Positions 31,685-49,300 of a stretch of 64,000 bases of DNA are shown here, piece by piece (position 1 is the first letter of the stretch; each line of letters begins with the position of its first letter). Source of the stretch: an uncultured bacterium (GTDB taxonomy: Bacteria; Fermentibacterota; Fermentibacteria; Fermentibacterales; JCC-6); contig CAYREX010000003.1 in NCBI GenBank assembly GCA_964423505.1, forward strand, positions 76,817-140,816. Direction: 5' to 3'. Under the pieces are notes generated by a model, which was not told the DNA's origin, searched no databases, and saw nothing but the letters and a program-made list of their open reading frames with translations. The position numbers and the translations under genes are program-made.

Positions 31685-32638
31685 ATGGGAAACAGAAGTA
31701 GAGCTGAAATCTGGAAACAACAGAAATACAACAACTCCTGTGCTTGGGATTGCTTATCCATGCTTCTCAAAACGCAAGGAGTTGAAACAAGCTCCATCGA
31801 GCTTGTCGGTTCAACTCAGGTTCCCTACCAACTCCGTCTTCATCCAGAAGAGAATCGACTTACTGCAGGTATGCTCGTTCAAGCCGATGAAAATGTTAAT
31901 CTTGCACTCGGGCAATACGGCTTTAAACTTCAGAGCACTAGAGTATCGACAATCGCTGAATACGTTAAGCTCGCAGAGGAAACATTACTTTCTGGGGAAG
32001 CCTTCGTCACAAGTATTAAGAGACCAGATGATTTGCCAGGAAGACATGCCGTGGTTTTCACAGGATTAGAAGATTCAATCTTTAAAGGGCTTGATCCTGA
32101 TTGCCGTCTTGATCGAACTACGGACTATCACTACTCCGATGTTCATGATATCGTAACTCTTGATCTTGAGCAAGAAGAATTCCATCAAAGGGTTACTGGC
32201 GATACAGGGTATGTTCCACTTCTTGGTGTACTAGTTTCCTGCGACCCTTTCAAGATCAATCCTGAAATAATGAAAAATATGTTCAGTAGAAGTAAGGAAG
32301 CTCTTGATTTCTATGAGTCTGCTACAGGTGAACTTGACTTCCAGAGCTCCAAATCGATGCCTGTTATCTACAATGTGCTAAAACCTGTTTTATCTGACTT
32401 ACGAACAGCAATCGAAATCCGAGATGAGTATCAGAATCGAGATTCAGAGATTGCCTTATTCCTGAAAGAATTTGAAACCGGAATCCTGGAGTTTCGGAAA
32501 CTAACAAAGAATAATGAAGCAATACCGGAGAAACTTACCGAGAGATTGAGTGCTTCCCTTGCAAGATCTTACGAACTTCTTGAGAAGCACCTGTCTTTTG
32601 AGATGTACAGAAGAAAAGAGGCTCTAACCACTGAATGA
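31685..32638 (+). CDS. Cassette 1: putative papain-like (C39-like) cysteine peptidase
   Basis: AAGGA RBS then ATG at 31685. N-terminal QQKYNNSCAWDCLSMLLKTQG resembles the catalytic Cys block of C39/papain-fold peptidases. AT-rich codon usage. Stop lies inside attC1. Confidence 0.55.
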   Translation: MGNRSRAEIWKQQKYNNSCAWDCLSMLLKTQGVETSSIELVGSTQVPYQLRLHPEENRLTAGMLVQADENVNLALGQYGFKLQSTRVSTIAEYVKLAEETLLSGEAFVTSIKRPDDLPGRHAVVFTGLEDSIFKGLDPDCRLDRTTDYHYSDVHDIVTLDLEQEEFHQRVTGDTGYVPLLGVLVSCDPFKINPEIMKNMFSRSKEALDFYESATGELDFQSSKSMPVIYNVLKPVLSDLRTAIEIRDEYQNRDSEIALFLKEFETGILEFRKLTKNNEAIPEKLTERLSASLARSYELLEKHLSFEMYRRKEALTTE

Positions 32639-32700
32639 ACCTGTCACAGCCGTCAAGGTACGGGCTACGTAATACCTGTGCAGGTTATTCAGATTGTTCG
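32621..32700 (+). repeat. attC site 1
   Basis: GCTCTAACCACTGAATGAACCTG ... CTGTGCAGGTTATTCAGATTGTTCGGC. R''/L'' almost identical to attC11, 3' box GTTCGGC. Confidence 0.55.
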
Positions 32701-32717
32701 GCATAGGAAAGGGGATA

Positions 32718-33128
32718 GAAGTGCAGAAACTAATCACATGTGCGCTGATCGTTCTGACTTGTTCGATCGTGCTTGCGGGTGAGGTAGCGGACGAGGTGAC
32801 CTTCAGGACAGCGCAACCTGCTCCAACCGATATCATATCCTGGAGTTTCTTCTGGGTGATGCCTGAGATTGCACCGGATGCAACGCTTGAATATGCGGTG
32901 ATCCAGCCTGATGGTGAGGAGTATTTCCGGATGGCTATTCCTGCTGAAACTCCATCAGGAAGTCCAATTCGCTCGGATTTCCGTGAAGGTCTTGCCGGTG
33001 GCAATCCGGAGGTATTCAGCGGTCATAACATCCAGTTCACTTTCACAGTGGACATCGGCACAATCCAGTTCCCGGATGGTGCAACATTCCTCTTCGAGTT
33101 CACAGAAGTCGTCGAGGCAGTTAGATAG
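32718..33128 (+). CDS. Cassette 2: small secreted hypothetical protein
   Basis: GTG start after AAAGGGGA. Signal peptide LITCALIVLTCSIVLAG. Confidence 0.45.
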   Translation, partial: EVQKLITCALIVLTCSIVLAGEVADEVTFRTAQPAPTDIISWSFFWVMPEIAPDATLEYAVIQPDGEEYFRMAIPAETPSGSPIRSDFREGLAGGNPEVFSGHNIQFTFTVDIGTIQFPDGATFLFEFTEVVEAVR

Positions 33129-33134
33129 GGATTG

Positions 33135-33211
33135 CCGAACAACTGCATGAACCATCTACGAGCGGAGCTGTTTGAGCTAGGTGGTCGTAATGGTTATGCA
33201 GAGCGTTCGAA
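33135..33211 (+). repeat. attC site 2
   Basis: GCCGAACAACTGCATGAACCAT ... ATGGTTATGCAGAGCGTTCGAA. Family-1 attC, 3' box GTTCGAA. Confidence 0.6.
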
Positions 33212-33225
33212 GACGAGGAAGAAGC

Positions 33226-34074
33226 GATCGCGCTATGAAAGTCTCGTTCACACTGAAACCCGACCAGAAGTTGATTCTTCGCATTCTTCGCGAGGCGGGC
33301 AAAGTCCATTACCCAGTCCTACGCCGAGTTCTAGAGGCGATTGAGCATTCCGAGTCCGATTTCGACGCCTTCGTGAAGGCGGTCGCTGACAAAAGGGAGT
33401 TCGATTTCCGACCCGACTGGCAGAAACCAAAGCTGACGGAGTTGGAACGTACCCTCGAGGGATTGCTCTTCGTTGGTCTGATCGAACAGTCATTCCACTC
33501 GGATGGACAAATCAGAGTCTTCATGGGGGACACCGGCCTGACCAACAGTGACATTGCTCTCACGACCGAAGGCGAGAGAGTCGCCAAGAGCATCAAGGAG
33601 GAGCGACGCCTAATTCTGAGGCCGGCACCGACACGGCGCACCACAATCTTCGTCGCCTGTGCTTTCGGGCATGATGAGGTCGATTTGCTTTATGAGAAGC
33701 ACTTCCTTCCCGCGTGCCAAAGTGCGAACTACGAGGCAGTCCGAGTGGATATGACCGAACCGAAGCAGAGCATCACAGAAGCGATTCTCGAGGGTATTAC
33801 GGAGTGTGCTTGCGTCATCGCCGATCTGACATACGCTCGACCTTCCGTCTACTTCGAGGTCGGTCTTGCCCACGGCCTCGGAATTCCGCTGCTCTTGACG
33901 TGCAGATCAGATCACCACCGGGGCAAGGCGGACGACAAGAAGGTTCACTTTGACCTCGAACAGTACAAAATCAGTTTCTGGAAGCAAACACCCAAGGGTG
34001 ATTTCAGTTGGCCAAAGAACATGAAGCCAACTGCACGTCTGTCTGCATTGGTGCCAAAGCGGACGGGAGAATGA
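33226..34074 (+). CDS. Cassette 3: wHTH domain fused to a nucleoside-2-deoxyribosyltransferase-like (Ndt/TIR-like Rossmannoid) domain
   Basis: C-terminal TIFVACAFGHDEVDLLY...ECACVIADLTYARPSVYFEVGLAHGLGIPLLL matches the Ndt-fold signature (F-E-x-G-x-A, active-site Glu). The N-terminal about 110 aa are wHTH-like. ATG 33226 is the first start outside attC2. Confidence 0.6.
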   Translation, partial: DRAMKVSFTLKPDQKLILRILREAGKVHYPVLRRVLEAIEHSESDFDAFVKAVADKREFDFRPDWQKPKLTELERTLEGLLFVGLIEQSFHSDGQIRVFMGDTGLTNSDIALTTEGERVAKSIKEERRLILRPAPTRRTTIFVACAFGHDEVDLLYEKHFLPACQSANYEAVRVDMTEPKQSITEAILEGITECACVIADLTYARPSVYFEVGLAHGLGIPLLLTCRSDHHRGKADDKKVHFDLEQYKISFWKQTPKGDFSWPKNMKPTARLSALVPKRTGE

Positions 34075-34085
34075 CAAAGAAGCTT

Positions 34086-34172
34086 CGAACAAGAGCGTGG
34101 AGCTCGACTTCGGGTTAGCCGCGCCGCTTCGCTCTGCGGCACCCCCGAAGCGGCTCACGCTCGACGTTAGCT
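34086..34172 (+). repeat. attC site 3
   Basis: CGAACAAGAGCGTGGAGCTCGAC ... GCTCACGCTCGACGTTAGCT. Third sequence family, 3' box GTTAGCT. Confidence 0.55.
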
Positions 34173-34179
34173 GGAAGGG

Positions 34180-34953
34180 ATGCAAATGCCTATCGGCAGA
34201 AATCGTGTTTTTGAAATCATCGGAACAAAGCCAAGAAATCCACAATGGGCCTGGTGCGCAATTTCTCCGAACTACGAAAGAGTTGTATTTACTCTATGGG
34301 CTGATGAATTACTCGGTGACAGATATCTATTGTTTAGAGATCGACGAACCAATTCGCTAAACCGCAGCGAAAGAGATCTAAAAGAGAAGCTCGATCTTGC
34401 AATGGAGATGAACATTCCAGCTTATGGGTTGGTATGCGAAGCGCGCAATGTAAATGCACCAATAAGAAAAATAGGAAAGGTACATGCAGATTATCTTGTC
34501 AAATTGAGATTGCAGAAGGACGAGGAAGGGATTTATGCAATAGATATTGGCAAGGTTCAACTTGCTGAGATTGTGAGTGAAGAGAAGGCTAAGAGAGAGG
34601 CAACGGAGAATAACGGTCTTAACGATATAAATTCAATCCCACCAGGTTCTGAGTCTCCTGATAGAGCCCATGTTGAGGGCTTAATAGTCAAGAGGGACCC
34701 CAAAGTCAGGCGGTATGTTATTGAACAAGCTGAAGGGAAGTGTGAGTTCTGCGGGAAGCAAGGGTTCCAAATGGACTCAGGTAGGAGGTATCTAGAAGCT
34801 CACCATGTAATCACACTCTCTAATCAGGGAGCTGATACTGTGGAAAATGTTATTGCATTATGTCCGGAACACCATAGAGAAGCACATTATGGGGTGAATG
34901 CAGAGGAGTTGGAAGAACAATTCTTGGAATGTATTAACAACAGAAACGGGTAA
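34180..34953 (+). CDS. Cassette 4: HNH endonuclease with unknown about 150-aa N-terminal domain
   Basis: C-terminal CEFCGKQGF...LEAHHVITLSNQGADTVENVIALCPEHHREAHYG is a canonical HNH finger. The N-terminal domain is uncharacterised. Confidence 0.75.
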   Translation: MQMPIGRNRVFEIIGTKPRNPQWAWCAISPNYERVVFTLWADELLGDRYLLFRDRRTNSLNRSERDLKEKLDLAMEMNIPAYGLVCEARNVNAPIRKIGKVHADYLVKLRLQKDEEGIYAIDIGKVQLAEIVSEEKAKREATENNGLNDINSIPPGSESPDRAHVEGLIVKRDPKVRRYVIEQAEGKCEFCGKQGFQMDSGRRYLEAHHVITLSNQGADTVENVIALCPEHHREAHYGVNAEELEEQFLECINNRNG

Positions 34954-34984
34954 GAGTCGCCTTCTGGAGACACACTATTATCAG

Positions 34985-35032
34985 CTAACAACAAAATGCA
35001 GCAGAACTGCGTGCAGGTGTTCAGAAGTAAGT
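34985..35032 (+). repeat. Possible short attC site 4
   Basis: GCTAACAACAAAATGCAGCAGAACTGCGTGCAGGTGTTCAGA. R''-like GCTAAC, short imperfect stem, 3' GTTCAGA. Confidence 0.35.
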
Positions 35033-35162
35033 GTATCGCAGTCTGCTGATTTTGAGTGTTGTGGGATTCAATGGCCGGCCTGCTGGCTAGCCCGGCGAAG
35101 GATGACAAGAGGACAAAGAGAACATATTTATGGTGTAGGCAATGCGAACAGATAGACACGGG

Positions 35163-35366
35163 ATGAAAATGGAATACGGATCAAAATCAATGCCCGCCCT
35201 AATCGCCAGCCCAGAACTCTATGCATCCCTTGCGAAGAACAAGCAGACCTACTGGACAACAGGAACCGGCCCGGCTCGAAGGCACGGAGCTTGGAGTATA
35301 GAGCTGCTGGAATACTGCCATAGTGGAGTGAATGGTATCAAGAAATATATGAGATCAAAGGCATAA
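35163..35366 (+). CDS. Cassette 5: possible small ORF (67 aa)
   Basis: Only ORF in the about 500-bp cassette between attC4 and attC5. Weak. Confidence 0.2.
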   Translation: MKMEYGSKSMPALIASPELYASLAKNKQTYWTTGTGPARRHGAWSIELLEYCHSGVNGIKKYMRSKA

Positions 35367-35462
35367 CGACATAAAGAAAACAAGGATAAAGCAAAGAGAA
35401 CAAAGGACATAGGACAAAGACAGGAGCTTGGGCGCAGGCAAGCAAGGAGACAATAGCTGCCC

Positions 35463-35543
35463 ACAACAACAGCATGAACCAGGCGCGGGGGGCAGTTGGA
35501 CGTGCGAGGGTAGTTCCCGCGCTGGTTATGCTGGATGTTATGT
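35463..35543 (+). repeat. attC site 5
   Basis: CACAACAACAGCATGAACCAGGCG ... CGCGCTGGTTATGCTGGATGTTATGT. Family 1, 3' box GTTATGT. Confidence 0.6.
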
Positions 35544-35562
35544 GAGATAGGGAGTATACGAA

Positions 35563-36243
35563 ATGGAAACAGTAGACATCATTTTAGAAGTACTGTTGTT
35601 ACTCGGTTTGCTGTATCTTGCTCTCTTCAAATCGTATTTTAAGGAGAAAGGGAAAAACCTAGCAACTCGGGAAGATATCCAGGAGATCACTTCTCTTGTT
35701 GAGACCTTAAGAGCAAAAATAGAATACTCATTGCAGGCGAAATTGGTACTAAGGCGAGAAGAGCATGAATCACTATTACACTACTACTCTTGTCTATCTA
35801 AGTGGATTCACACAATATCGAGCTTCAGTTTTGCAGGAATAACATACGATACATTACACATGATTAATGAAAGAATCAGTAGTGTGAACATATGCTATTC
35901 GGAAACGATATTGGCATTTTCAAAAGTAGAACTACTGGTTAATAATGATAAGTTGAGAGCAGAGGGCCATGGTCTGATTAGAAGAGTACTAAAATATCAA
36001 AATAGAACAATTAAGATGTGTGGTGACTATCATCTCTTATGTCTTGAGATCCATGCGGAAGAGAAAAGATTAAAGGATGGTGAGCGTGTTGAGGAATGGG
36101 CTAAAGTAATTGCAAAGCAACAAATAGCAATAAAGAAATACTATGAAGAGCAAGCTAGCGAATATGGAACTCTGTTAAGGTACATAATACCACATATGGA
36201 GACTATATCAGCACATTTAGAAGAGATCGTTAAGGAGGAGTGA
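35563..36243 (+). CDS. Cassette 6: hypothetical protein with N-terminal TM helix
   Basis: AT-rich ORF with TM helix ILEVLLLLGLLYLALF. Follows attC5 by 20 bp. Confidence 0.5.
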   Translation: METVDIILEVLLLLGLLYLALFKSYFKEKGKNLATREDIQEITSLVETLRAKIEYSLQAKLVLRREEHESLLHYYSCLSKWIHTISSFSFAGITYDTLHMINERISSVNICYSETILAFSKVELLVNNDKLRAEGHGLIRRVLKYQNRTIKMCGDYHLLCLEIHAEEKRLKDGERVEEWAKVIAKQQIAIKKYYEEQASEYGTLLRYIIPHMETISAHLEEIVKEE

Positions 36244-36299
36244 TAACTACTAATCACAAGAATAAATGCAATGAGATGTGGGCAAAACAGAGACCAGCA

Positions 36300-36379
36300 C
36301 ATAACCACAGCATGAACCAGCCGCGGGGCAGTTGAATATGCGAGGTTGATTCCCGCGCTGGTTATGCTGAGTGTTACAG
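36300..36379 (+). repeat. attC site 6
   Basis: ACCACAGCATGAACCAGCCGCGG ... CGCGCTGGTTATGCTGAGTGTTACAG. Family 1. Confidence 0.6.
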
Positions 36380-36523
36380 AAGTAGGACGGCGGCGTCTGA
36401 GAACATAGAGCAAACAGAATCGGGCACATCGGAAATCGGGCCCATAGAACAAGAAAAAGCCGCCGCCGTGAAAAAATAGGAAACCGGAGATCGGACAACC
36501 GGACAGCGACAGAGGAGACAGAG

Positions 36524-36600
36524 CCTGTAACAATGGGCTGTAGCTGAATCGCGCGACTGTACCGTCAACCTGTGCAATCAGCTAAGCCCAAGCGTTGTGG
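36524..36600 (+). repeat. attC site 7
   Basis: GTAACAATGGGCTGTAGCTGAATCGC ... CAATCAGCTAAGCCCAAGCGTTGTGG. Family 2, like attC8. Confidence 0.55.
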
Positions 36601-36626
36601 GTTGAAATGAAAAGAGGCATTCTAAG

Positions 36627-36869
36627 TTGGGAGGACAGCGTATGAAAGCGAAGAAGATATACTGGGCGAACCCCCATTCTGATGGAGGTTGGGCAGTTCA
36701 GAAATCTAGATTTGGAGGAACGATATCCAAGCATTCTACCCAATCCAGTGCATGGAAAACTGCTCGCCGCATGGCTTGCGGTACGGAATCAGATGCAATA
36801 CTGCAGGACCAGCAGAAGAGAATTGTGACAAGACATACATACTCAAATGAGACTTTAGAAGAAGATTAA
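36627..36869 (+). CDS. Cassette 8a: DUF2188-like small protein
   Basis: KKIYWANPHSDGGWAVQKSRFGGTISKHSTQSSAWKTARRMA fits the DUF2188 pattern as I recall it. Confidence 0.5.
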   Translation: MGGQRMKAKKIYWANPHSDGGWAVQKSRFGGTISKHSTQSSAWKTARRMACGTESDAILQDQQKRIVTRHTYSNETLEED

Positions 36870-36870
36870 T

Positions 36871-37731
36871 ATGCGAGCATATATACCTCTTGCGATAGTC
36901 TATGACTTCGATGGAACACTTGCTCCTGGCAACATGCAGGAAAGAGATTTCATTCCAGCAATTGGCATGACACAACAAGCGTTCTGGGATGAAGTCAATA
37001 GTGAAGCAAAACAACATCAGGCAGATAATATCCTCGTATATATGAAATTGATGCTAGATAAAGCTAGACAGGCTCAAGTAACAGTTCAAGAGGATGATTT
37101 CAAAGACTATGGACGTCGCCTGTCATTCTACGAAGGGATCTTGCCTAATGAAGAACAGTCAGATCCAGGTTGGTTCGCGAGAATCAATTATTATGGCAGA
37201 GGTGCTAGCATAGCAGTCAAGCACTATGTTGTCTCTTCAGGTATCCGAGAGATGATAAAGGGTACACGAATCGCAAACCAGTTTGAGGCGATTTTTGCAT
37301 CCTCATTTTGCTATGAACATCATGGTATTGCTGTATGGCCAGCCTTGGCTCTTAATTACACATCCAAGACGCAATATCTATTTAGGATTAATAAGGGCTG
37401 TCTTGATGTTAGCGAACATGTGCAAATTAACAAATACTTACCCGAAAATGATAGACCAGTACCGTTTAGGAACATGATCTATATTGGCGATGGAGCTACT
37501 GACATTCCTTGTATGCGAGTAGTAAAGGACAGGGGAGGTTGTACAATTGCTGTGTATAAGCCCCACACTCCTGGAGCCAGGGCCAATGTTCAACAACTTG
37601 TTAAAGAAGGTAGGGCAAACTGCATTGCATCAGCGAAATACAACGAAGGCAGTACTCTTGATAAGATAGTCAAGACATACATAGATCATCTGCAGTTCTA
37701 CTATGCATATAAGCGCTTGCAAGAAACATAG
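36871..37731 (+). CDS. Cassette 8b: HAD-superfamily hydrolase (phosphatase-like)
   Basis: HAD motif I VYDFDGTL, motif II VVSSG, motif IV IYIGDGATDIPCM. Starts 2 bp after the DUF2188 stop, in the same cassette. Confidence 0.7.
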   Translation: MRAYIPLAIVYDFDGTLAPGNMQERDFIPAIGMTQQAFWDEVNSEAKQHQADNILVYMKLMLDKARQAQVTVQEDDFKDYGRRLSFYEGILPNEEQSDPGWFARINYYGRGASIAVKHYVVSSGIREMIKGTRIANQFEAIFASSFCYEHHGIAVWPALALNYTSKTQYLFRINKGCLDVSEHVQINKYLPENDRPVPFRNMIYIGDGATDIPCMRVVKDRGGCTIAVYKPHTPGARANVQQLVKEGRANCIASAKYNEGSTLDKIVKTYIDHLQFYYAYKRLQET

Positions 37732-37733
37732 AG

Positions 37734-37818
37734 CCCACAACAAGCGGCTGTAGCGGAATTGCTGCCGGCCTGGGGGGGGGCTGAGTCTATCGCAATCCGC
37801 TAAGCCACAGCGTTATGC
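37734..37818 (+). repeat. attC site 8
   Basis: CACAACAAGCGGCTGTAGCGGAATTGC ... GCAATCCGCTAAGCCACAGCGTTATGC. Family 2. Confidence 0.6.
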
Positions 37819-37837
37819 GTAAATACGAACCGGAGAA

Positions 37838-38602
37838 ATGGAGATCATGACAATACCGGATGAAACGAAAATACTGGATGAAGATGAAGTCCAGCGTCTT
37901 CTAGGGTTAATGCTAGGCGCTCTCCCTTATACTGTAAAGGAAATGTTAGTACTGAAAGATATCAATCCGGAGGATTCGATTCGTATTAGATCGCTCTCAA
38001 AATCTTTTCAGAAAGCCCGTGAAACTGCCAAGGAAATGCTTAAGGATACATCCAGCAAAACCAAGATTCCTCAATATCGAATCCGAGCAATCGAAGAAGG
38101 CAAGTTGGCTGAGATCAAACCGGAATTCCTAAAACAGCTAAGCCGATACTTCGGACTAGATGAATGGTGTTCTCGTTGGGCAACCGTGAACACAGAACTA
38201 GCATCTGGACTTGGGATGTTTTCCTGGGTAGAACTCGGGAAACGAAGAAATGGGAAAGGATTGCCCGTATCTGTATTGTCAGATTCAGAGAAACAGCTTA
38301 AGGATTTCGTGGAATCCCGCCGACCTGAAGAGCACATAAGATCGGAATTGGATATTGGTTATCGGATCACAGGTAAAAGTTTCGAGATATTTGAAATCCG
38401 GCCAAGATGGAAGCAACCGGACATTACACAAGAAATCTCAGTTGCCAAGGCAACCTATGTTAAAAGTAGAAAAATATGGAAACTCTATTGGATGCGCGCT
38501 GATTTGAAATGGCACAGGTATGATCCTCTACCTGACACAAAATCGCTCCAGGATGTGCTTAACGAAATTGGCGAGGATCCGTATTGCTGTTTTTGGGGAT
38601 GA
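37838..38602 (+). CDS. Cassette 9: XRE-type HTH fused to a DUF3024-like C-terminal domain
   Basis: Central IRAIEEGKLAEIKPEFLKQLSRYFGLD (Cro/C1-type HTH). The C-terminal W-rich block KIWKLYWMRADLKWHRYDPL...DPYCCFWG resembles DUF3024. Confidence 0.5.
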   Translation: MEIMTIPDETKILDEDEVQRLLGLMLGALPYTVKEMLVLKDINPEDSIRIRSLSKSFQKARETAKEMLKDTSSKTKIPQYRIRAIEEGKLAEIKPEFLKQLSRYFGLDEWCSRWATVNTELASGLGMFSWVELGKRRNGKGLPVSVLSDSEKQLKDFVESRRPEEHIRSELDIGYRITGKSFEIFEIRPRWKQPDITQEISVAKATYVKSRKIWKLYWMRADLKWHRYDPLPDTKSLQDVLNEIGEDPYCCFWG

Positions 38603-38606
38603 AAGA

Positions 38607-38685
38607 GCGCATAACCAACGCATGAACCAGACGCTTGTAAGGGAATAGGTTAGGGTTACAGCGCTGGTTACGCGTATTGTTAAGT
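38607..38685 (+). repeat. attC site 9
   Basis: GCGCATAACCAACGCATGAACCAGACG ... CAGCGCTGGTTACGCGTATTGTTAAGT. Family 1. Confidence 0.6.
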
Positions 38686-38706
38686 AGCGATAGAAGGAAG
38701 AGCATA

Positions 38707-39381
38707 ATGGTACCTATTCTGTATGGGATAGCGAGTGGAATCGCATTACTGTTAATCAAGATGTTATGGGTTAAGGGACATTATAGATTCAAGATGAAGA
38801 TAGTGAATAATTCATTTCCTGTAAGCGGTGCAAATGTAGCAGTTATTCTTGGCAGTAAGTACTTCGAGAGCGAGAGCTCAAGGCAACTGCTATATGTACC
38901 GCTCACGGGTGTATCAGCATATGCAAAGCTATCAACATTGCTCAGTAAGTATGGATCCGATGTTAGTTTCTATGTGGATAAGACCGTACCAAAGGATAAG
39001 CGCATTACCTTTGAGATATGCATAGGTGGAAAGCATAGTAGCGTTCGCACAGAGCACTACTTGAAGAAGCATTGTTCTCGGATGTTTCACCCCAACGGTA
39101 GTACTCTAACTCCCAACGAAGCGCGAATTGTAAAACTAGACAGAACGTTCGAAGATGGCAAGAAGAAGTCAGTCCTCATTATCTATGGGCAGAACCGATT
39201 TGACACCATGTGTGCAATAGCCTACTTCTGCGAGTACTTCGAAGAACTGGTGCGGAAGCAGTTTGCTAGAGATCATGCAGCAATCCGTCTGGAGACAGAT
39301 CCTCAACTTGGGCATTATGATGCGGAGTATAAGGCCGATGACACACACTTGATAGACCTATGTCAAGTAGATGCTACTTAA
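38707..39381 (+). CDS. Cassette 10: hypothetical protein with N-terminal TM anchor
   Basis: ATG 38707 is the first start outside attC9. TM helix ILYGIASGIALLLIKMLWV. Confidence 0.5.
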   Translation: MVPILYGIASGIALLLIKMLWVKGHYRFKMKIVNNSFPVSGANVAVILGSKYFESESSRQLLYVPLTGVSAYAKLSTLLSKYGSDVSFYVDKTVPKDKRITFEICIGGKHSSVRTEHYLKKHCSRMFHPNGSTLTPNEARIVKLDRTFEDGKKKSVLIIYGQNRFDTMCAIAYFCEYFEELVRKQFARDHAAIRLETDPQLGHYDAEYKADDTHLIDLCQVDAT

Positions 39382-39454
39382 CAAGCGGCTGCAGCGGCAT
39401 TGCGGTAGGGTAGCAACCGGTATAGGTGCAATCCGCTGAGCCTTAGTGTTAGCA
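39378..39454 (+). repeat. attC site 10
   Basis: TAACAAGCGGCTGCAGCGGCATTGC ... GCAATCCGCTGAGCCTTAGTGTTAGCA. Family 2, nearly perfect stem. Confidence 0.6.
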
Positions 39455-39469
39455 TGGAAATGAGGAAGA

Positions 39470-40543
39470 ATGGGAAAAGCAGCGATTTTCCTTGGTGCTG
39501 GCGCTTCTAAGGCGGAGGGTGCTCCTCTGCAAGGAGAGTTGTTCACTGAATACTTTGCATCTGATGCATTCAAGAATAGCTATAAAGATATTGACAGAGA
39601 ACTTGCAACGTTTTTCCTCTGTAACTTCAGAATTGACCTAGACCATCAAGACATATCATCGATTAGCTTTCCCACATTCGAGGAAGTTCTTGGTTTGGTT
39701 GATCTTGCCATTCTTAGAAAAGAATCATTCCGAGAGTTTGAGATTGAGAATAGAGCATCCAACAGTGGGCGCTTAAGATTCATAGGCCAGTATCTTGTAT
39801 TTCTGTTGGCAAGGGTTCTAGATGATAAGCTGAAGGGTCACAACGGCATTCATCAGAAATTGGTACGAACACTACATGATACTGGTATTCTAAGAGATGT
39901 GACTTTTATAACTACAAATTATGACATACTTATCGACAATGCATTAGTAAAGCTGGAAAAGCATGATGTTGATGTTGACTACGGAATTGAGTTCCGTAAT
40001 TTCGGAACTCAAAACAATTGGCGACGCCCAAGAATGGATAAGAAGGTATCACTATACAAACCGCATGGATCGTTAAATTGGCTGCTATGCCCAACTTGCA
40101 GTGAACTCGATATTACACCGAAAGAGAAGGGAGTTGTCAGACTTATCTCTGATTTTGCAAATGCAACATGTCCAGAGTGCGAAAGTGTTTATGTGCCTCT
40201 CATTGTACCTCCGATATATTACAAAGATATGAGCAATGTATTCCTGAGTTCAATATGGAATCGAACTGATGCTTCTTTACGGAAAGTGGACCATGTAATC
40301 TTCTGCGGATATTCCTTTCCTGATGCTGATATGCATATTAAGTATTTAATGAAAAGAGCTCAGACTAATCGTAAAAACCCTCTTAGAATTACGGTTATGA
40401 ACTATCACCCAGGAAAAACAGAGTCAGAATCCAGAAGTGAAGAGAATAGGTACAAGCGGTTCTTAGGAAAACAAGTGAAGTATACAGATAAATCATTTGA
40501 ATGGTTTGCAGATAATCCTATGGATGTTTTGGGAAATTCTTGA
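39470..40543 (+). CDS. Cassette 11: standalone SIR2-like protein (SIR2_2 / DUF4020-type, predicted NAD+-consuming effector)
   Basis: N-terminal MGKAAIFLGAGASKAEGAPL (GAGxS motif of the SIR2_2 clade) and ...KPHGSLNW downstream. 357 aa, single gene between attC10 and attC11. Confidence 0.7.
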   Translation: MGKAAIFLGAGASKAEGAPLQGELFTEYFASDAFKNSYKDIDRELATFFLCNFRIDLDHQDISSISFPTFEEVLGLVDLAILRKESFREFEIENRASNSGRLRFIGQYLVFLLARVLDDKLKGHNGIHQKLVRTLHDTGILRDVTFITTNYDILIDNALVKLEKHDVDVDYGIEFRNFGTQNNWRRPRMDKKVSLYKPHGSLNWLLCPTCSELDITPKEKGVVRLISDFANATCPECESVYVPLIVPPIYYKDMSNVFLSSIWNRTDASLRKVDHVIFCGYSFPDADMHIKYLMKRAQTNRKNPLRITVMNYHPGKTESESRSEENRYKRFLGKQVKYTDKSFEWFADNPMDVLGNS

Positions 40544-40544
40544 T

Positions 40545-40622
40545 GCTAACCACTGCATGAACCAGCTACGAACAGATCTGATTGACCCGGGGTAGTCGTG
40601 CTGGTTATACAGAATGTTAGGC
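40545..40622 (+). repeat. attC site 11
   Basis: GCTAACCACTGCATGAACCAGC ... GTGCTGGTTATACAGAATGTTAGGC. 3' box GTTAGGC fits the GTTRRRY consensus and the 5' box is close to its reverse complement. Confidence 0.65.
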
Positions 40623-40641
40623 AGGAAAGGAGATACATGCC

Positions 40642-41070
40642 ATGTCGCTACACGCATCCGAGATTCTGGCATGTCCCAAGTGCGGACATAAACAGGCAAC
40701 TCTCATCTGGCAGTCGCTGAATGTTACCCTTGACCCCGGCCAGAAGCAGAACCTCTTTGATGGAAAGATAAATGTACTTGAATGCACGCAGTGCGGGAAC
40801 AAGGCATTCGTCGATGCACCTTTTCACTATCACGACATGAATCTCGAGTTTTACGTGCGGTATGTTCCCTTGGCATCTCTAGAGCATCCAGAGACATTTG
40901 ACGACTTTCTTGCGAATGGATTTCCATCCATGGAAGAGAACGAAGATATGGGAATACCGGCGGATTCATACTTGCGCACTATCCATATTGTTTTTGATAT
41001 GGGTGAATTGGTGCGCTATGTGATGTTCCGCGAATGTCTGGCCAACATCAAGCAAGGTAAGAAGGCCTAA
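40642..41070 (+). CDS. Cassette 12: CpXC-domain zinc-ribbon protein
   Basis: CPKCGHKQ ... CTQCGNKAF pairs characteristic of CpXC proteins. Confidence 0.6.
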   Translation: MSLHASEILACPKCGHKQATLIWQSLNVTLDPGQKQNLFDGKINVLECTQCGNKAFVDAPFHYHDMNLEFYVRYVPLASLEHPETFDDFLANGFPSMEENEDMGIPADSYLRTIHIVFDMGELVRYVMFRECLANIKQGKKA

Positions 41071-41126
41071 CCATCGAATAGAGGGTATCGGCGCATACGC
41101 GCCGAACCGTCATTGACACGTTCGGC
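41065..41126 (+). repeat. attC site 12 (short)
   Basis: GCCTAAC (41065-41071) ... perfect hairpin GCCGAACCGTCATTGACACGTTCGGC ... 3' box GTTCGGC. Confidence 0.45.
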
Positions 41127-41192
41127 TACCAGAACCGGACTTGCATCTCAGAGAGAGTATATGTATCTACATAGTAGAGACGGGAGGATACT

Positions 41193-41435
41193 ATGCTTGC
41201 ACGAATCCAGAAATGGGGCAACAGCCTAGCGGTTCGAATCCCCAAAGCCTTCGCGAAGGAAATGAACGTGTCTGATGGTGGAGCTGTCAACATGACAATC
41301 GATGACGGAAAGATCGTCATCAGTCCTGAGATAGAGCAGGTCTACCGACTGGATGACCTTCTGGAGGAGATAACCTCGGAGAATCTTCATGCTGAGGTCG
41401 AGTCCGGAGAGGTAGTTGGGCAGGAGATTTGGTGA
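41193..41435 (+). CDS. mazE: Cassette 13a: MazE/AbrB-type antitoxin
   Basis: IQKWGNSLAVRIPKAF (SpoVT/AbrB swapped-hairpin motif). Overlaps mazF by 7 bp. Confidence 0.75.
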   Translation: MLARIQKWGNSLAVRIPKAFAKEMNVSDGGAVNMTIDDGKIVISPEIEQVYRLDDLLEEITSENLHAEVESGEVVGQEIW

Positions 41436-41776
41436 AGACAGATGAGTGCTGCCCTGGGAGGGGGGATATCGTCTGGCTCTCCTTCACACCCCAGGCAGGC
41501 CATGAACAGGCAGGCATACGTCCTGCACTAGTCCTGTCTCCCAAATCGTACAACCGGAAAACAGGTCTTGCATTGTACTGTCCGGTTACGACAGTAGTGA
41601 AAGGCTATCCGTTCGAGGTTGCCATTCCACCTGACCTTGAGGTTTCCGGAGTTATTCTATCGGACCAAGTGAAGAGCCTGGACTGGAGAGCACGAAAGGC
41701 AGAGTTAATCTGCAGACTCCCAGATGCCGTGACCAGAGAAGTACTCGGCAAGGTGGGCACTCTTGTTCGGGACTAG
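41429..41776 (+). CDS. mazF: Cassette 13b: MazF/PemK-family endoribonuclease toxin
   Basis: GDIVWLSFTPQAGHEQAGIRPALVLSPKSYNRKTGLALYCPVTT matches PemK/MazF. Confidence 0.8.
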   Translation: MVKTDECCPGRGDIVWLSFTPQAGHEQAGIRPALVLSPKSYNRKTGLALYCPVTTVVKGYPFEVAIPPDLEVSGVILSDQVKSLDWRARKAELICRLPDAVTREVLGKVGTLVRD

Positions 41777-41779
41777 AGA

Positions 41780-41859
41780 GCCGAACAGCAGCATGAACCA
41801 GCCAACAGGGCAGAGCTGATCGAACGGGTGTTCCGTGCTGGTTATGCTGAGTGTTCGAG
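41780..41859 (+). repeat. attC site 13
   Basis: GCCGAACAGCAGCATGAACCAGCC ... CGTGCTGGTTATGCTGAGTGTTCGAG. Family 1. Confidence 0.6.
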
Positions 41860-41908
41860 TTCCGGCATGACTTGACAACCACCACCATAGAGGTATAGAT
41901 ATTATACC

Positions 41909-42169
41909 ATGGTGTTCGAATACGATGCTCGTAAGAGCAAGAGAAACTTGGAGAAGCACGGGATCGACTTCGAGGAGTCGCAGCTTCTCTGGGATGATCC
42001 GGACCTGCTGGAGATTCCGGCAAGGACCGAAGATGAAACGCGATTCATGGTGATCGGTCGGATAGACAGCTCCCATTGGTCTGGGATCATCACCTATCGC
42101 GGAGAGGCGGTTCGAATCATCTCCGTCCGCAGATCCCGTAACGAGGAGGTGGTGCTGTATGAAGGCTAA
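41909..42169 (+). CDS. brnT: Cassette 14a: BrnT (DUF497) ribonuclease toxin
   Basis: MVFEYDARKSKRNLEKHGIDFEESQLLWDDP matches the BrnT N-terminus. Confidence 0.75.
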   Translation: MVFEYDARKSKRNLEKHGIDFEESQLLWDDPDLLEIPARTEDETRFMVIGRIDSSHWSGIITYRGEAVRIISVRRSRNEEVVLYEG

Positions 42170-42386
42170 GGACCTGGACAAGAAGTTCGATGACGGTGAG
42201 GATGTCCTCAGATACCTCGAACTCAGCAAGGCCCGTCGTGTTGAGCAGGAGCAGAAGCGAGTCAATGTGGACTTCCCCATTTGGATGATTCACTCGCTGG
42301 ACAAGGAAGCAAAGCGACTGGGTATTCCCAGGCAGTCCCTGATCAAGATGTTGATCGCCAGGCATATCGAGGAAGCCAGAGCATAG
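42159..42386 (+). CDS. brnA: Cassette 14b: BrnA (CopG/RHH-like) antitoxin
   Basis: Overlaps brnT by 11 bp. C-terminal ribbon-helix-helix-like IPRQSLIKMLIARHIEEA. Confidence 0.7.
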   Translation: MKAKDLDKKFDDGEDVLRYLELSKARRVEQEQKRVNVDFPIWMIHSLDKEAKRLGIPRQSLIKMLIARHIEEARA

Positions 42387-42391
42387 AGACT

Positions 42392-42462
42392 CGAACAAGC
42401 GGCTGCATTGGTCTTGCAGCATTGCGACACCTGACAGAGGACAACGCATAGTGCTTCTTAGT
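42392..42462 (+). repeat. attC site 14 (diverged)
   Basis: CGAACAAGCGGCTGCATTGGTCTTGCAGCATTGCGAC... has a family-2-like 5' half and a degenerate 3' half. Confidence 0.4.
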
Positions 42463-43116
42463 GGACACCCAGATCCGCGCACTTCTGAGAGGAGCCCGAG
42501 CACCAGATATTCCTGAGGTTGAGTACCCACTCTATCTCATGCGGTCTTCCGTGCCCAGGCTCCGGTGGAAGGATGTTATGGCGGCAAGCATAATGCAAGA
42601 GCACGGGCGGAGCGTCCGTAGCCTTGCGCGGGATCTGGGTGTCCATTGACAGGAGTATCTGGTATTCGAGTCTATCACGGTCCTGGATACCGGGTCTGCT
42701 TCAAGAATCGGGGGAAGAGCCTGGTGATCATATTGGCCGGTGGTGACAAGCGGACACGAAAGAAGATCGAGAAGGCGTTGCGCCTGGCACGAGATCTATC
42801 GGAGAGAGAGAAGAGAATTAGCAGGACCAAGACTACTCGATTCGAAACCGCTGAGCATCGTCGAGCTCCAGAGAAAATGGCCGCACATCTTGAAGCATGC
42901 CTTGAGGAGTCCAACGGAGATGCGGCGTTTGTAGCGAAGGCACTCGGAGATATCGCGAAAGCAAAGGGAATGACGCAGGTTGCACGCGATGCTGGTCAGT
43001 CTCGAGAGCCTGTACAAGGCTCTGTCGGGCAAACGTACACCCCGGTTCGACACCCTTCTGAGAGTAGCACATGCCCTCGGGATGGAGCTTCACGCGGCAC
43101 CACTGAATCGCTGAAA
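42461..43116 (+). pseudogene. Cassette 15a: decayed higB-like (addiction-module killer, COG3657) / higA-like (antidote) toxin-antitoxin pair
   Basis: IRVYHGPGYRVCFKNRGKSLVIILAGGDKRTRKKIEKALRLARDL matches the killer C-terminus. It runs without a stop into the antidote sequence KTTRFETAEH...MAAHLEACLEESNGDAAFVAKALGDIAKAKGMTQVARDAG. The antidote C-terminus (SLYKALSGKRTPRFDTLLRVAHALGMELHAAPLNR, ending 43116) is in a different frame after a 2-nt loss in a GAGAG run near 43003. The killer N-terminus is also out of frame. Confidence 0.5.
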
Positions 43117-43193
43117 TCGACTGGCCAACAACAGCATGCAGCTGGAAAGCTGCTGATGTTGAGCGTTCGGCCTTATGAAATGAGAGGTGCAGC

Positions 43194-43610
43194 ATGGGAG
43201 CTATAGCAGACTCGATCATCGCGTACGCGAAACCGCTGCTCGACGAAGCTGATGGTTCACTCGAGGACATGAACAATGCCTTGTCACTTGCTCAGCTATG
43301 TTGGAATCTCGCACTGTTACCGGAAAAGGAACGTGACGCAAGACTCGCAAAGATGCAGTCGGCCCTCGCGATGGATGACACGGAATTCGAGGATTTCCGG
43401 CAATCGATCGTCCTGCCGATGATCCAGAGGCACCATGACATGTTTCCTAACATGCCCAGGCACGGGTCTGCGAAGGCGTCGAGAGCAAGGGTGCAACCGC
43501 AGCGACGGGCGGCGGCAACGCCGCAGGCAAAGAGATATCCTGGAACTGCACGCAACGCGCCGTGCCCGTGCAATAGCGGAAAGAAGTACAAACGTTGTTG
43601 CGGACGGTAG
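43194..43610 (+). CDS. Cassette 15b: UPF0149/YecA-like protein with C-terminal SEC-C zinc motif
   Basis: C-terminal APCPCNSGKKYKRCCGR is the SEC-C metal-binding motif. Confidence 0.6.
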   Translation: MGAIADSIIAYAKPLLDEADGSLEDMNNALSLAQLCWNLALLPEKERDARLAKMQSALAMDDTEFEDFRQSIVLPMIQRHHDMFPNMPRHGSAKASRARVQPQRRAAATPQAKRYPGTARNAPCPCNSGKKYKRCCGR

Positions 43611-43651
43611 GCTGGCATCGTTGTCCACGGAACGCGTGCGAAGAGCTGGCC

Positions 43652-43733
43652 AAACAAGCGCCTGCAGTTGAACGGGCACGTCCGGCCGCTTCGCGGGGTC
43701 GCGCACCCGTCTACTGAGGCGCACCGTTATGCC
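43652..43733 (+). repeat. attC site 15 (GC-rich variant)
   Basis: CAAACAAGCGCCTGCAGTTGAACGGGCACG ... CGCACCCGTCTACTGAGGCGCACCGTTATGC. Family-2-like ends, 3' box GTTATGC. Confidence 0.45.
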
Positions 43734-46378: not shown

Positions 46379-49300
46379 CTAGAGCCTTCCCGCCAGGACG
46401 ACCACCAGGCAGTCCTCCCGGACCTCCCCCGAATCCGAGGGGCGGGCGCTGGCGTAGACGATGTAGCGGCCGATGTGTAGCCTCCGTCCGTCGTCGTCGG
46501 TGCCGTCCCAGGAGACGGTGGTGACGCTCCCGACCGTCTCGCCTGCAAGAAGCTCGCGGACCGGCCGCCCCTGCACGTTGTAGACGGTGAGGGTGACGGT
46601 GGCGGTCCCTCCGGGCCTGACGGTGATGGAGAGCACGTCTTCCCTGCCGTCGCCGTCGGGGGAGAAGGGGTCAGGATGCAGCTCCAGGAAGGCGCCCTCC
46701 GGGGAGGCCGCGCCGGAGACGCTGTTCCGCTGGCCGGGCGTGCCGCCGCAGGTGCAGGATGCCCAGTTGTCGCCTCTCCAGCTTGCGGTTTCGGCGCATA
46801 CCCTCTCCAGGCTGGTCCCGCTGCCGCCGCCCCACGAGTCGTCGTAGGGGACGTGGTCGGATGCCTCTCCTCCCGGGCTGGTCAGGGTGACCAGGTCGGC
46901 GTAGCCGGCGCCGGGCTGGGTGGTGTTGTTAAGGGCGGGCCAGTCGTCGAGCTGGATGACCGGGCAGCCGACGTCTCCCCACCTGGCAGCGAACCCGGCG
47001 CTGTCCGGGACCAGCAGGGCGTAGCCGCCCGCCGGGACCGGCTGCGGAGCCTCGGGGAGTGTGACGGTCTCCCTGGAGTCCGACAGCTCCCAGAGGGCCG
47101 GTGCCACCGCCTCCTGGGAGGTGTTCCGCAGCTCTATCCACTCCGGCTCTCCCTGGGCGGGTGAGTACATGAGCTCGTTCAGGACGAGGGGTCCCGGGTC
47201 GTTCCACGAGCAGCTCGCGGTGTCTCCCTGAGGGAAGGTGTCCGCCTGGCAGTCCACCAGTGCTATCAGGGGCATGGGGCCTTCGCTGCCGGTCCAGTAG
47301 AGATGGGCCTCCAGCGTGTCGCCCGGAGCCATGGCTCCCGCGGACCAGGAGTCGACGGCCTCGTCCGGGTCAGGCAGGCCGTCGCCGCCGGAGTCGGCGT
47401 GGAGGATCACCCGGAGGGAGCCTGTCCGGATGCTGTCCGTGCCGGTGGAGACCACCATCGCCGTGACGGTCACCTGAGTGCCTGCCTCGCCCACGGGCGG
47501 CATGGCGCAGGTCCAGCCCAGCGTGGCGTCCGGCCCCTCGGGCGTGTAGGGGGGATCGGCTCCGGGAGTGGGGCCATCCGGGCTCACCAGCCAGGAGTCC
47601 TCCTCGTCCGGGAGGTCCGTCGAGCGGCGCTGCAGGCTCTGGCCCTCGCCCGGGTCCCGCGGGATGTCGTCCAGGCCGTCGTCGTCCCTCTGGCTCCAGT
47701 CGTCCGAGGGCACCGGCGTGCCGTAGGTGGAGTGGACGTCCTCGGTGCCGGTGCCGCCGCGGCCGTAGAGGGTGAGCGGGTCGGTGGAGGTCAGGCCGTC
47801 TCCGATGGTGGTGTTGCCGGTGGTGAGCACCACAGTCCCGGGAGCAAGGTCCCAGGGCTCGCCACCCTGGGCGTACTCCCTGTCCAGCACAACGGCGTAG
47901 CATCCGGCCTGCAGGTAGGGGGAGACGACGGCGTCCGGGTCCGATGGTGGCTCCACCGCCGTGGGCCACGCGACCAGCACGTCCAGGGCGTCTCCGTCGG
48001 TTAGCCGCATGCCGTCCAGGGTGGCGATGCCCGGGCCGGGGAAGCAGAGCTCCACCATCTCGTCCGTGTCCTCGTTCTCCGGGTTGCAGACCACCTCGGT
48101 GATGACCAGCGGGACGCCGCCTCCGGAGCCGAACGGGCAGAGGGCCGCGTCGTCCGACCGGTCTCCGTCTCCAGGGCAGCTTACCCTGGCCGCAGCGAGG
48201 TACTCGCCAGCCTCGGGGGCCGTGGTCTCGGCCTCGAGGGTGTCGGAGGAGCCGGGGTAGAGGGTGTCCGGCGGGGAGTGGGTCGAGATCAGCTCGGCCG
48301 GGCCGGCGAGGGAGTCTCCGTCGGCGTCGAGGAAGAAGTCCACCGACATGCCTGTGACCGGGGTGGTGCCGGCGTTTCGGAGGACTGCGGTCAGTGAGAG
48401 CGGCTCGCCGGGATCGGGCCCGCCGGGAGAGACAATGACGGTATCGATGGCCGCGTTGGTTGTGTCGCTGGAGAAGGCGGGGAGCCCCGGTGTGCCGCCC
48501 GGGGGGGAGGCGGCCCAGCACCACTCCTCGTCCGGCATGTCGTGGGACCTGCGCTCGACGGAGAAGCCGTCGCCCGGGTCGAAGGGGATGTCGTTCAGGC
48601 CGTCGTCGTCGCAGAGCAGCGGGTCGTCGGAGAGGACGGGTGTGCCGTAGGTGGAGACCATGTCGGAGATGGTGGTGCCGCCCGGGCGGTAGAGGACGAC
48701 AGGGTCGGTGGTGGTGAGGCCGTTGCCGATGGTGGTGTTGCCGACGGTGCAGAGGAGGGTGGAGTCCGGCGGGGAGTAGGGGGTGGGACTCTGCGGGTGC
48801 TCGGGGTCCAGCACCAGGGCGTAGTTGCCCGCCCGGAGCCAGTGGCCGGTCCGGCAGGGGAAGGGAGCTTCGCCCTCCCAGCGCACTATTCCGTCCAGGG
48901 CGTCGCCGTCGGTGAGGGAGCTGCCCGCCATCGGGTAGGTGCCGGGGCCGGGGTAGTAGACCTCGACCATCTCGTCGGTGTCTTCGAAGGTGGGATTGGC
49001 GAAGACCTCGGTGATGACGGGGCAGACGCCTCCGCCGGCTGCTGCTGCGACCGCTCGGCAGTCGTCGGTCGGGTCGATGTCGCCCCCGGCGTCCGCCCGG
49101 CCTGCCGCGGCGTACCAGCCGGCCGCAAGGGTGGGCCATGCGGTCAGGGTGACGGACCCTCCAGGGGGGAGCCCGGCGGCGCTCTGCGAGGCGAGCACCT
49201 CCTCCTGGGAGGCGACGGAGTCTGCGTTCAGGTCCAGGAAGAGGGTCAGCTCGCCATCCTCCGGGGGGACGTTGCCGGCGTTGGTGAAGGTCGCGCAGAG

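Follow-up and report, generated by a model that had tools for sequence, protein, structure and literature searches.

A SIR2_2-family gene carried as a single-gene integron cassette in an uncultured Fermentibacterota bacterium: a candidate compact NAD+-consuming defense effector

Results

The stretch of DNA analyzed here, 64,000 nucleotides from a contig of an uncultured Fermentibacterota bacterium (CAYREX010000003.1; hereafter the window, to which positions refer unless another locus is named), carries on its forward strand an open reading frame (ORF) for a 357-aa SIR2_2 protein at 39470 to 40543, stop codon included, which stands alone within a cassette of an integron. A reading made from the nucleotide sequence without database searches (the sequence-only reading) had described the gene as a one-gene cassette for a candidate NAD+-depleting defense effector; its coordinates, its length, and the FLGAGAS and HGS motifs read in its product were all found as described. 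The ORF starts with ATG, and the N terminus of the protein, MGKAAIFLGAGASKAEG, contains the first motif as F7-L8-G9-A10-G11-A12-S13 (GAGAS at 39494 to 39508); N150 is encoded at 39917 to 39919, H199 at 40064 to 40066, and a putative zinc ribbon of four cysteines (Cys4) at 40088 to 40180, with H199-G200-S201 falling within YKPHGSLNW. That the gene is real is supported by the 1,384 homologs found at an E value of ≤1e-3 when its product was compared with 5.8 billion proteins. The best 120 of these share 60 to 71% identity with it, are nearly all 354 to 386 aa long, and have PF13289 as their sole domain; one of the few shorter entries among them is a 334-aa call of the window gene itself, with a later start, and an exact look-up of that 334-aa version returned no contig.

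Two 79-nt hairpins were seen to bracket the ORF in a hairpin scan (39376 to 39454 and 40544 to 40622). The first corresponds to the attC site of the preceding cassette (39377 to 39454, forward strand; attC family B; R′ box GTTAGCA at 39448 to 39454; 50.5 bits, E = 1e-11), and the second to the attC site of the SIR2 cassette itself (40545 to 40622, forward strand; attC family A; R′ box GTTAGGC at 40616 to 40622; 68.1 bits, E = 1e-16). With the crossover point at G|TT, the SIR2 cassette starts at 39449 and ends at the G at 40616, and this 1,168-bp forward-strand unit comprises a leader of 20 nt that contains a Shine-Dalgarno-like GAGGA, the SIR2 ORF, which is the sole ORF between its two flanking attC sites, and the attC site. 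All ORFs of the array to the right of the integrase gene lie on the forward strand and are separated by spacers of 75 to 130 nt that fall into two sequence families. Eleven spacers of the window align to one hairpin, which has an extrahelical base and the ends AAC...GTT; compensatory changes were found in 11 of its 14 predicted stem pairs. A covariance model built from these 11 attC sites recovered 14 sites, 3 of them outside the training set, all on the forward strand within 32623 to 43732, and none elsewhere in the window; counted from attI, the SIR2 cassette takes about the 11th place in this 14-attC array. Together with an integrase that matches TIGR02249, the covariation and the covariance model upheld the claim that the gene sits alone between two attC sites. 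Family A (AACnnnGCATGAACCAG...CTGGTTATGC...GTT) and family B (AACAAGCGGCTGCAGCGG...CCGCTGAGCC...GTT) are interleaved in the one array, so the cassettes may come from two pools.

The integron integrase gene, intI (30298 to 31497, reverse strand; 399 aa from the chosen start codon), is transcribed away from the array. Its product, a tyrosine recombinase, scored 328.6 bits versus 265 for TIGR02249, contains Phage_int_SAM_4 and Phage_integrase domains, and has an exact 399-aa match on record; its named relatives, at 55 to 68% identity, are all from the Fermentibacterota (Ca. Fermentibacteria, Aegiribacteria, and Sabulitectum). The guanine-plus-cytosine (GC) content of intI is 64% and thus host-like, while that of the SIR2 gene is 39%, that of the island at about 31.8 to 43.7 kb, which holds the array and has intI at its left edge, 47%, and that of the window, as of the chromosome, about 68%. 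The host-like composition of intI and the affiliation of its relatives point to a sedentary, chromosomal integron of a Fermentibacterota genome. Only 15 nt separate the upstream attC site from the ATG of the SIR2 gene, including the GAGGA ribosome-binding site, a stretch too short to hold a separate promoter, and a promoter scan of the array gave 18 promoter-like matches versus 14.7 expected, which is chance level and cannot locate an internal promoter; the cassette is therefore regarded as promoterless. The 357-aa protein was also found, identical, on two short contigs of two other assemblies, where the order of the array is the same, which adds nothing new on mobility.

Profile searches assigned the protein to Pfam family SIR2_2 (PF13289; residues 145 to 324, E = 5e-12) with 46.6 bits, well above the gathering score (24.5). 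In the same Pfam scan no other domain was detected, and the classical SIR2 family, PF02146, gave no match at an E value of ≤1. The sequence-only reading had taken FLGAGAS as diagnostic of the SIR2_2 clade; the membership stands, and the profiles place the protein above the SIR2_2 cutoff and not with CobB or housekeeping sirtuins, but the motif itself is not diagnostic, because all sirtuins share GAGxS, which here lies outside the Pfam match, so that the assignment rests on the profile score. The top PADLOC matches were models named "SIR2" (9e-15), with weak matches to ThsA and Aga_SIR2 models, those to ThsA having E values of about 5e-5 over about 50 residues only. Two NCBIfam models scored far below their cutoffs: SIR2_antiphage (NF042942; 25.1 bits versus 500) and a deacylase model (NF001753; 12.7 bits versus 243). 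The sole PDB relative found by sequence was PsSIR2, the Sir2 protein of a Sir2-HerA system (E = 1.3e-6), and Sir2 proteins of such systems were also the top structural matches. By these sequence and model comparisons, the window protein is a defense-type SIR2 whose nearest characterized relative is the Sir2 of Sir2-HerA, rather than ThsA or DSR proteins, as had been proposed.

The AlphaFold model of the protein is confident (predicted local distance difference test [pLDDT] score, 82.7; predicted template modeling [pTM] score, 0.86) and showed a single bilobed sirtuin-like fold, in which the large domain is of the Rossmann type, the small domain (about residues 20 to 135) is helical, and residues 207 to 237 form a Cys4 zinc ribbon. 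Its top structural matches, the NADase Sir2 proteins of Sir2-HerA, are 17 to 19% identical to it in sequence. The TNYD and HGS motifs of the window protein align with N163, D165, and H212 of PsSIR2, which are the catalytic residues of that enzyme (PMC11472057). In an alignment of 33 close family members, in which the mean column identity was 75%, G9, G11, N150, D152, and H199 are invariant, and they remain so in 30 distant members, which are 31 to 52% identical and among which Y151, G200, and C207 are also invariant. By alignment, the window protein retains an intact NAD site, with G9/G11, N150, D152, and H199 in place.

The four cysteines of the predicted ribbon are also conserved: C207, C210, C234, and C237 are invariant in the close members, and C210, C234, and C237 are retained in at least 90% of the members that are 31 to 52% identical. 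In the family, this CxxC-(23)-CxxC pattern is placed directly after the catalytic histidine, and it aligns in register with H116 and with both CxxC pairs of the Thermotoga maritima sirtuin Sir2Tm, the reference sequence of which was verified as PDB entry 1yc5. The spacing from the histidine to the first cysteine is eight residues in both proteins, and P-x-I-V follows the second cysteine pair in both. Profile comparison gave only a weak, local alignment with Sir2Tm (E = 0.005, probability 7%). After the ribbon, the window protein reads IVPPIYYKD instead of FGE, so that, on reading the sequence, the sirtuin FGE loop is not recognizable. According to the PsSIR2 study, bacterial defense SIR2 proteins lack two elements of archaeal and eukaryotic sirtuins, the zinc finger and the FGE loop, for which a link to deacetylase activity has been reported (PMC11472057). 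The family thus appears to join a defense-type fold to an ancestral sirtuin module, the putative zinc ribbon.

When 1.84 billion cluster representatives were searched exhaustively with a profile, 325 clusters at 50% identity matched at an E value of ≤1e-30, nearly all with proteins of 340 to 410 aa that matched end to end. This near-uniformity of length indicates that the standalone architecture is conserved, with essentially no fusions to sensor domains. The sequence-only reading had noted that the protein lacks SLOG, HerA, DSR-type, or other fused modules, and the Pfam scan, the AlphaFold model, and the cluster lengths all bear this out. About 357 aa is the usual length outside integrons too, and the window protein is not shortened for life as a cassette. 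No SIR2 homolog was found in viral contigs or GenBank phages, which is neutral with respect to a defense role; the idea of a phage-borne or anti-defense origin was dropped on this result. These searches show a widespread and strongly conserved family, with more than 1,384 members, of self-contained SIR2_2 proteins of about 357 aa.

To characterize the genomic neighborhoods of the family, 84 homolog loci were collected and the ORFs within 5 kb were clustered; upstream partners were counted in those 60 loci for which 800 nt or more of upstream sequence was available. In 18 of these 60 (e.g., L005, L011, L014, L017, L020, and L023), a gene for a 160-aa protein ends 10 to 20 nt before the start of the SIR2 gene. 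The 160-aa protein is PD-(D/E)xK-like, matches over its full length the PADLOC model mREase_II (PDLC03212, "Type II methyl-directed restriction enzyme"; 2e-60), and has a weak match to DUF6998. The two genes look like an uncharacterized two-gene system, and a fusion of SIR2 with a restriction nuclease has been flagged as an undescribed defense combination (10.1101/2025.01.08.631966). The description of the gene as standing alone therefore holds for the copy in the window but not for every member of the family. Other tight neighbors were found in four loci each, namely, a 312-aa gene upstream of the SIR2 homolog with a gap of 0 to 16 nt and a 252-aa gene 21 nt downstream of it, and Cap15 of a CBASS operon, a bSEFIR protein, and PDC-M14A were further tight neighbors in a few loci. 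Homologs of these partners are encoded nowhere in the 64-kb window.

In individual loci, the homolog lies beside DndB, helicase, and HATPase genes or beside genes for a CD-NTase, Cap15, and a giant protein with a PNP domain. In two loci (L004, 8397 to 11068, and L071), the homolog lies 50 to 63 nt downstream of a Cap15-like gene; in L004, a CD-NTase gene precedes Cap15 and a tyrosine recombinase gene is close by. In these loci, the homolog may be an extra effector or a plain neighbor. Scanning of 107 flanking genes from 27 loci gave 7 matches to mREase_II, 4 to mad2 (MADS), 4 to N6_Mtase, 3 to Eco57I, and 3 to integrases, plus conjugation genes; type I and II methyltransferases are among the dominant families in this set. 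No conserved HerA-like neighbor was found in the 60 homolog loci, and HerA is not among the 25 commonest neighbor families. Overall, the neighborhoods of the family bear the signature of defense islands and mobile elements.

We also looked for the family in other integrons. With default filters, the attC model found no site in the 84 homolog loci (802 kb), and with the filters off it gave only nonsignificant matches in six candidate loci; many homologs have operon-like neighbors that lie too close for an attC site to fit in between. Life as a cassette thus seems to be an exception for the family. A model-free hairpin scan, which recovered the window site as a positive control and was positive in 0 of 70 in-gene control windows, revealed attC-like AAC...GTT hairpins that abut the stop codon of the homolog in three loci with more divergent family members (L027, 1301 to 2540; L065, 1770 to 1897; and L073, 4482 to 4594). 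In L027, where the homolog is 65% identical to the window protein, a second attC-like hairpin lies just before the start codon. These hairpins, which are unsupported by the covariance model derived from the window, are no more than suggestive of independent cassette captures, and the pair in L027 lends indirect support to mobility. In Vibrio sp. HDW18 (NZ_CP049914; L087, 763 to 2165), a SIR2-family gene (WP_166015500; 27% identity) clearly forms a one-gene cassette, which is flanked by attC repeats of the VCR type and has catB9, VOC, RelE/ParE, and GNAT cassettes beside it. The window is therefore not the only case of a SIR2 cassette in a chromosomal integron.

The other cassettes of the array (32623 to 43732, forward strand) include several with matches to defense libraries. 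The cassette at 36627 to 37731 has two genes, for a DUF2188 protein and a HAD-like hydrolase, the latter of which matches PADLOC PDC-S34 (2e-115), and that at 37838 to 38602 encodes a helix-turn-helix (HTH) and DUF3024 protein with a match to PDC-S43, also a PADLOC candidate (2.5e-46). A nucleoside 2-deoxyribosyltransferase/TIR-like protein is encoded at 33238 to 34074 (PADLOC TIR effector, 2.7e-6), and an HNH protein matching mREase_IV, a type IV methyl-directed restriction model (3e-24), at 34180 to 34953. The stretch from 41193 to 43206 holds a run of toxin-antitoxin cassettes (MazE/MazF, BrnT/BrnA, and a HigB/HigA-like pair), as is usual in sedentary chromosomal integrons. The presence of both defense-candidate and toxin-antitoxin cassettes is in line with published work that describes chromosomal integrons as reservoirs of small defense genes, most of them silent (Darracq 2025; Kieffer 2025). 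No ATPase or helicase family was found among eight cassette proteins scanned against Pfam. The genes that flank the SIR2 cassette, a 234-aa ORF upstream (38677 to 39381) and a CpXC gene downstream (40642 to 41070), gave no matches in the defense libraries, and neither recurs beside SIR2 homologs in the homolog loci. The suggestion that the trigger might be encoded in the adjacent cassettes was accordingly not borne out: these neighbors are not conserved beside homologs, and the window contains no known partner.

Some features of the array and its surroundings were noted in passing. An attC match at 43124 to 43171 lies inside the last listed ORF of the toxin-antitoxin run, and this ORF is probably overcalled. 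At 34984 to 35543, consecutive attC sites enclose only a 74-aa ORF, and at 36300 to 36600, consecutive sites are about 146 nt apart; both resemble ORF-less or degenerate cassettes. Outside the array, a reverse-strand gene at 46379 to 49993 encodes a protein of 1,204 aa that contains about three long repeats. By eye, its C terminus resembles the FlgD-Ig/type IX secretion system (T9SS) sorting domains common in candidate phyla of the FCB group, a likeness that is consistent with a Fermentibacterota host.

Discussion

The most likely reading of the SIR2 cassette, to which our analyses give an even chance, is that its product is an autoinhibited NAD+-consuming effector of abortive infection, stored in the array without a promoter of its own. 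PsSIR2 alone has been shown to be autoinhibited by its small domain, the deletion of which activates the NADase (PMC11472057), and, by analogy with PsSIR2 and ThsA, the small domain of the window protein would hold the enzyme inactive. A phage cue would then lift the inhibition, by direct binding to the small domain or the zinc ribbon, by oligomerization, or by both, and the activated enzyme would consume NAD+, such that the infected cell stops growing and phage replication is aborted. At its distal position in the array, the gene may be poorly expressed or silent, as a stored defense gene, and an integrase-mediated move next to the attI-proximal promoter could render it active.

Several points weigh against this interpretation. 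The NADase and defense roles of the family are inferred from the fold, the active-site residues, and the context, and the association of the family with defense is descriptive, as it comes from neighbor counts. The closest characterized relative, the Sir2 of Sir2-HerA, needs HerA, none of which was found here. About 30% of the members have a nuclease-like partner that this copy lacks, and the copy might therefore be incomplete. The zinc ribbon, finally, is typical of protein-deacylating sirtuins, and the substrate may thus not be free NAD+ alone.

The conservation of the Cys4 ribbon makes a pure NADase role less certain and keeps in play an alternative that we consider unlikely overall, namely, that the protein is a sirtuin that modifies proteins or nucleic acids through NAD+-dependent ADP-ribosylation or deacylation of a specific phage or host target. 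Such an enzyme would recognize its target via the zinc ribbon and the small-domain cleft, as classical sirtuins or SirTM do, and it could still act in defense. The register of C207, C210, C234, and C237 with the zinc site of Sir2Tm argues for this alternative, as do a weak match to the NCBIfam deacylase model over residues 196 to 280 and the reported link between the zinc finger and deacetylase activity, together with the reported lack of this finger in defense SIR2 proteins (PMC11472057). However, PF02146 was unmatched, the alignment to Sir2Tm was local and weak, the FGE loop was not recognizable, and the best structural matches were NADases of Sir2-HerA, all of which speak against this alternative.

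We judge it quite improbable, and more so than a target-modifying role, that the gene is an orphaned or incomplete module, inert as a cassette alone for want of a partner (for instance, the 160-aa mREase_II protein or some other sensor) that is missing here or located in another part of the genome. The tight upstream placement of the 160-aa gene in 18 of 60 loci would fit this explanation, as would the recurrence of the 312-aa and 252-aa partners in four loci each, the dependence of the closest characterized relative on HerA, and the mention of a SIR2-restriction nuclease fusion as a new defense candidate (10.1101/2025.01.08.631966). On the other hand, about 70% of the loci lack the 160-aa partner and no partner is universal; the partners vary from locus to locus, as expected of neighbors in defense islands. 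Partner homologs are absent from the 64-kb window, the genes of the adjacent cassettes are not conserved neighbors, and this copy strongly conserves both the solo architecture of about 357 aa and the catalytic residues. A housekeeping sirtuin or CobB-type deacetylase located in the array by chance is very improbable, since, despite the zinc ribbon and the name "NAD-dependent SIR2 family protein deacetylase" that some source databases give to homologs, PF02146 was unmatched, the deacylase model scored 12.7 bits versus 243, the gene forms a cassette between attC sites and has a GC content of 39% against 68% for the genome, the family resides in variable regions of defense genes and mobile elements, and the nearest structures are defense Sir2 proteins.

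To our knowledge, the SIR2 defense effectors described so far are triggered from outside, by a fused sensor (DSR2 and Avs5), a signal domain (ThsA), or a partner (HerA, pAgo, or KomA/B). A bolder reading, which we offer tentatively and hold to be rather doubtful, is that the family comprises self-sufficient, single-polypeptide SIR2 immune proteins that sense a phage component directly through the conserved helical small domain and the ancestral zinc ribbon and need no partner, signal, or fused sensor. Such proteins would be the smallest complete SIR2 defense system and an evolutionary intermediate between sirtuins that modify proteins and NADases that act in defense, and they would be shuttled by integrons between distant phyla. 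If the family does protect alone, it would illustrate how sensing and killing can both reside in a bare sirtuin fold, and the zinc ribbon would tie defense NADases to the classical protein-modifying sirtuins.

That SIR2 proteins act as defense effectors and that integrons carry defense cassettes are both already known; what is new is a large, uncharacterized, sensor-less SIR2_2 family with a putative zinc ribbon, present as a cassette in an uncultured phylum. The sequence-only reading had supposed that a one-gene SIR2 defense module carried by an integron was not yet characterized. As regards a solo SIR2 defense gene of about 350 aa, our literature search agrees, having turned up only work on Sir2-HerA, which is not proof of absence; compact defense genes in integron cassettes are, however, an established idea, and HDW18 also carries a distant SIR2 cassette. 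The cassette would nonetheless add a SIR2 entry to the integron-borne defense cassettes, from the Fermentibacterota and thus far from the well-studied Vibrio and clinical integrons. The gene, from a family that sits among anti-phage genes, is a good if unproven candidate for a compact NAD-consuming defense gene, and it is small and easily synthesized, which makes it cheap to test.

Among known systems, the closest is Sir2-HerA (Nezha, Gao_Her, or GAO_19; PsSIR2, 8W9L; Escherichia coli Sir2, 8UAE and 8J4U), the Sir2 proteins of which are similar in size (about 360 to 400 aa) and share the bilobed fold of a Rossmann large domain and a helical small domain, with aligned catalytic N, D, and H residues. 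They differ in that a HerA gene is present there, whereas none was found within the SIR2 cassette and its array or around the homologs, and in that they are reported to lack a zinc ribbon, whereas the window protein has the conserved Cys4. With the classical sirtuins (Sir2Tm, 1YC5 and 2H4F; Sir2-Af1, 1ICI; and SIRT2) and the ADP-ribosylating SirTM, the protein has the GAGxS, (T/Q)N(Y/I)D, and HG motifs in common, and, as in the classical sirtuins, a zinc ribbon follows right after the catalytic histidine with equal spacing from histidine to cysteine. Unlike them, it has no PF02146 match and no recognizable FGE loop, its helical small domain is larger, it has extra C-terminal helices, and its context is accessory and mobile.

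ThsA (Thoeris), DSR1/DSR2, Avs5 (SIR2-STAND), SIR2-APAZ/pAgo (SPARSA), and KomC (Kongming) are fused to, or encoded in an operon with, a sensor or signal module, whether SLOG, a large C-terminal domain, STAND, pAgo, or KomA/B, whereas the window protein has no fused module of this kind. The signal-binding domain of ThsA (SLOG, or Macro/TM) and ThsB, the TIR partner of Thoeris, are both absent from the SIR2 cassette, and no STAND, pAgo, or TIR partner was found beside the SIR2 gene or among the neighbor families of its homologs. DSR1 and DSR2, at about 1,000 aa with a C-terminal sensor, contrast with the 357 aa of the window protein and the 340 to 410 aa of its family.

As a genetic unit, the SIR2 cassette most resembles the phage-resistance integron cassettes known as BRiCs and the defense cassettes of sedentary chromosomal integrons, which are likewise one-gene, promoterless, and attC bounded and for which a model of integrons as a "biobank of small defence systems" has been published (Kieffer 2025; Darracq 2025). 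The text of the Kieffer preprint contains neither "SIR2" nor "sirtuin," and that of the Darracq preprint contains none of "SIR2," "Dsr," and "NAD." The SIR2 cassette of Vibrio sp. HDW18 has a gene of similar size but differs in its 27% identity and in its attC type. Whereas the BRiCs and published defense cassettes come from Vibrio or a clinical plasmid, the host of the cassette described here is an uncultured member of the Fermentibacterota.

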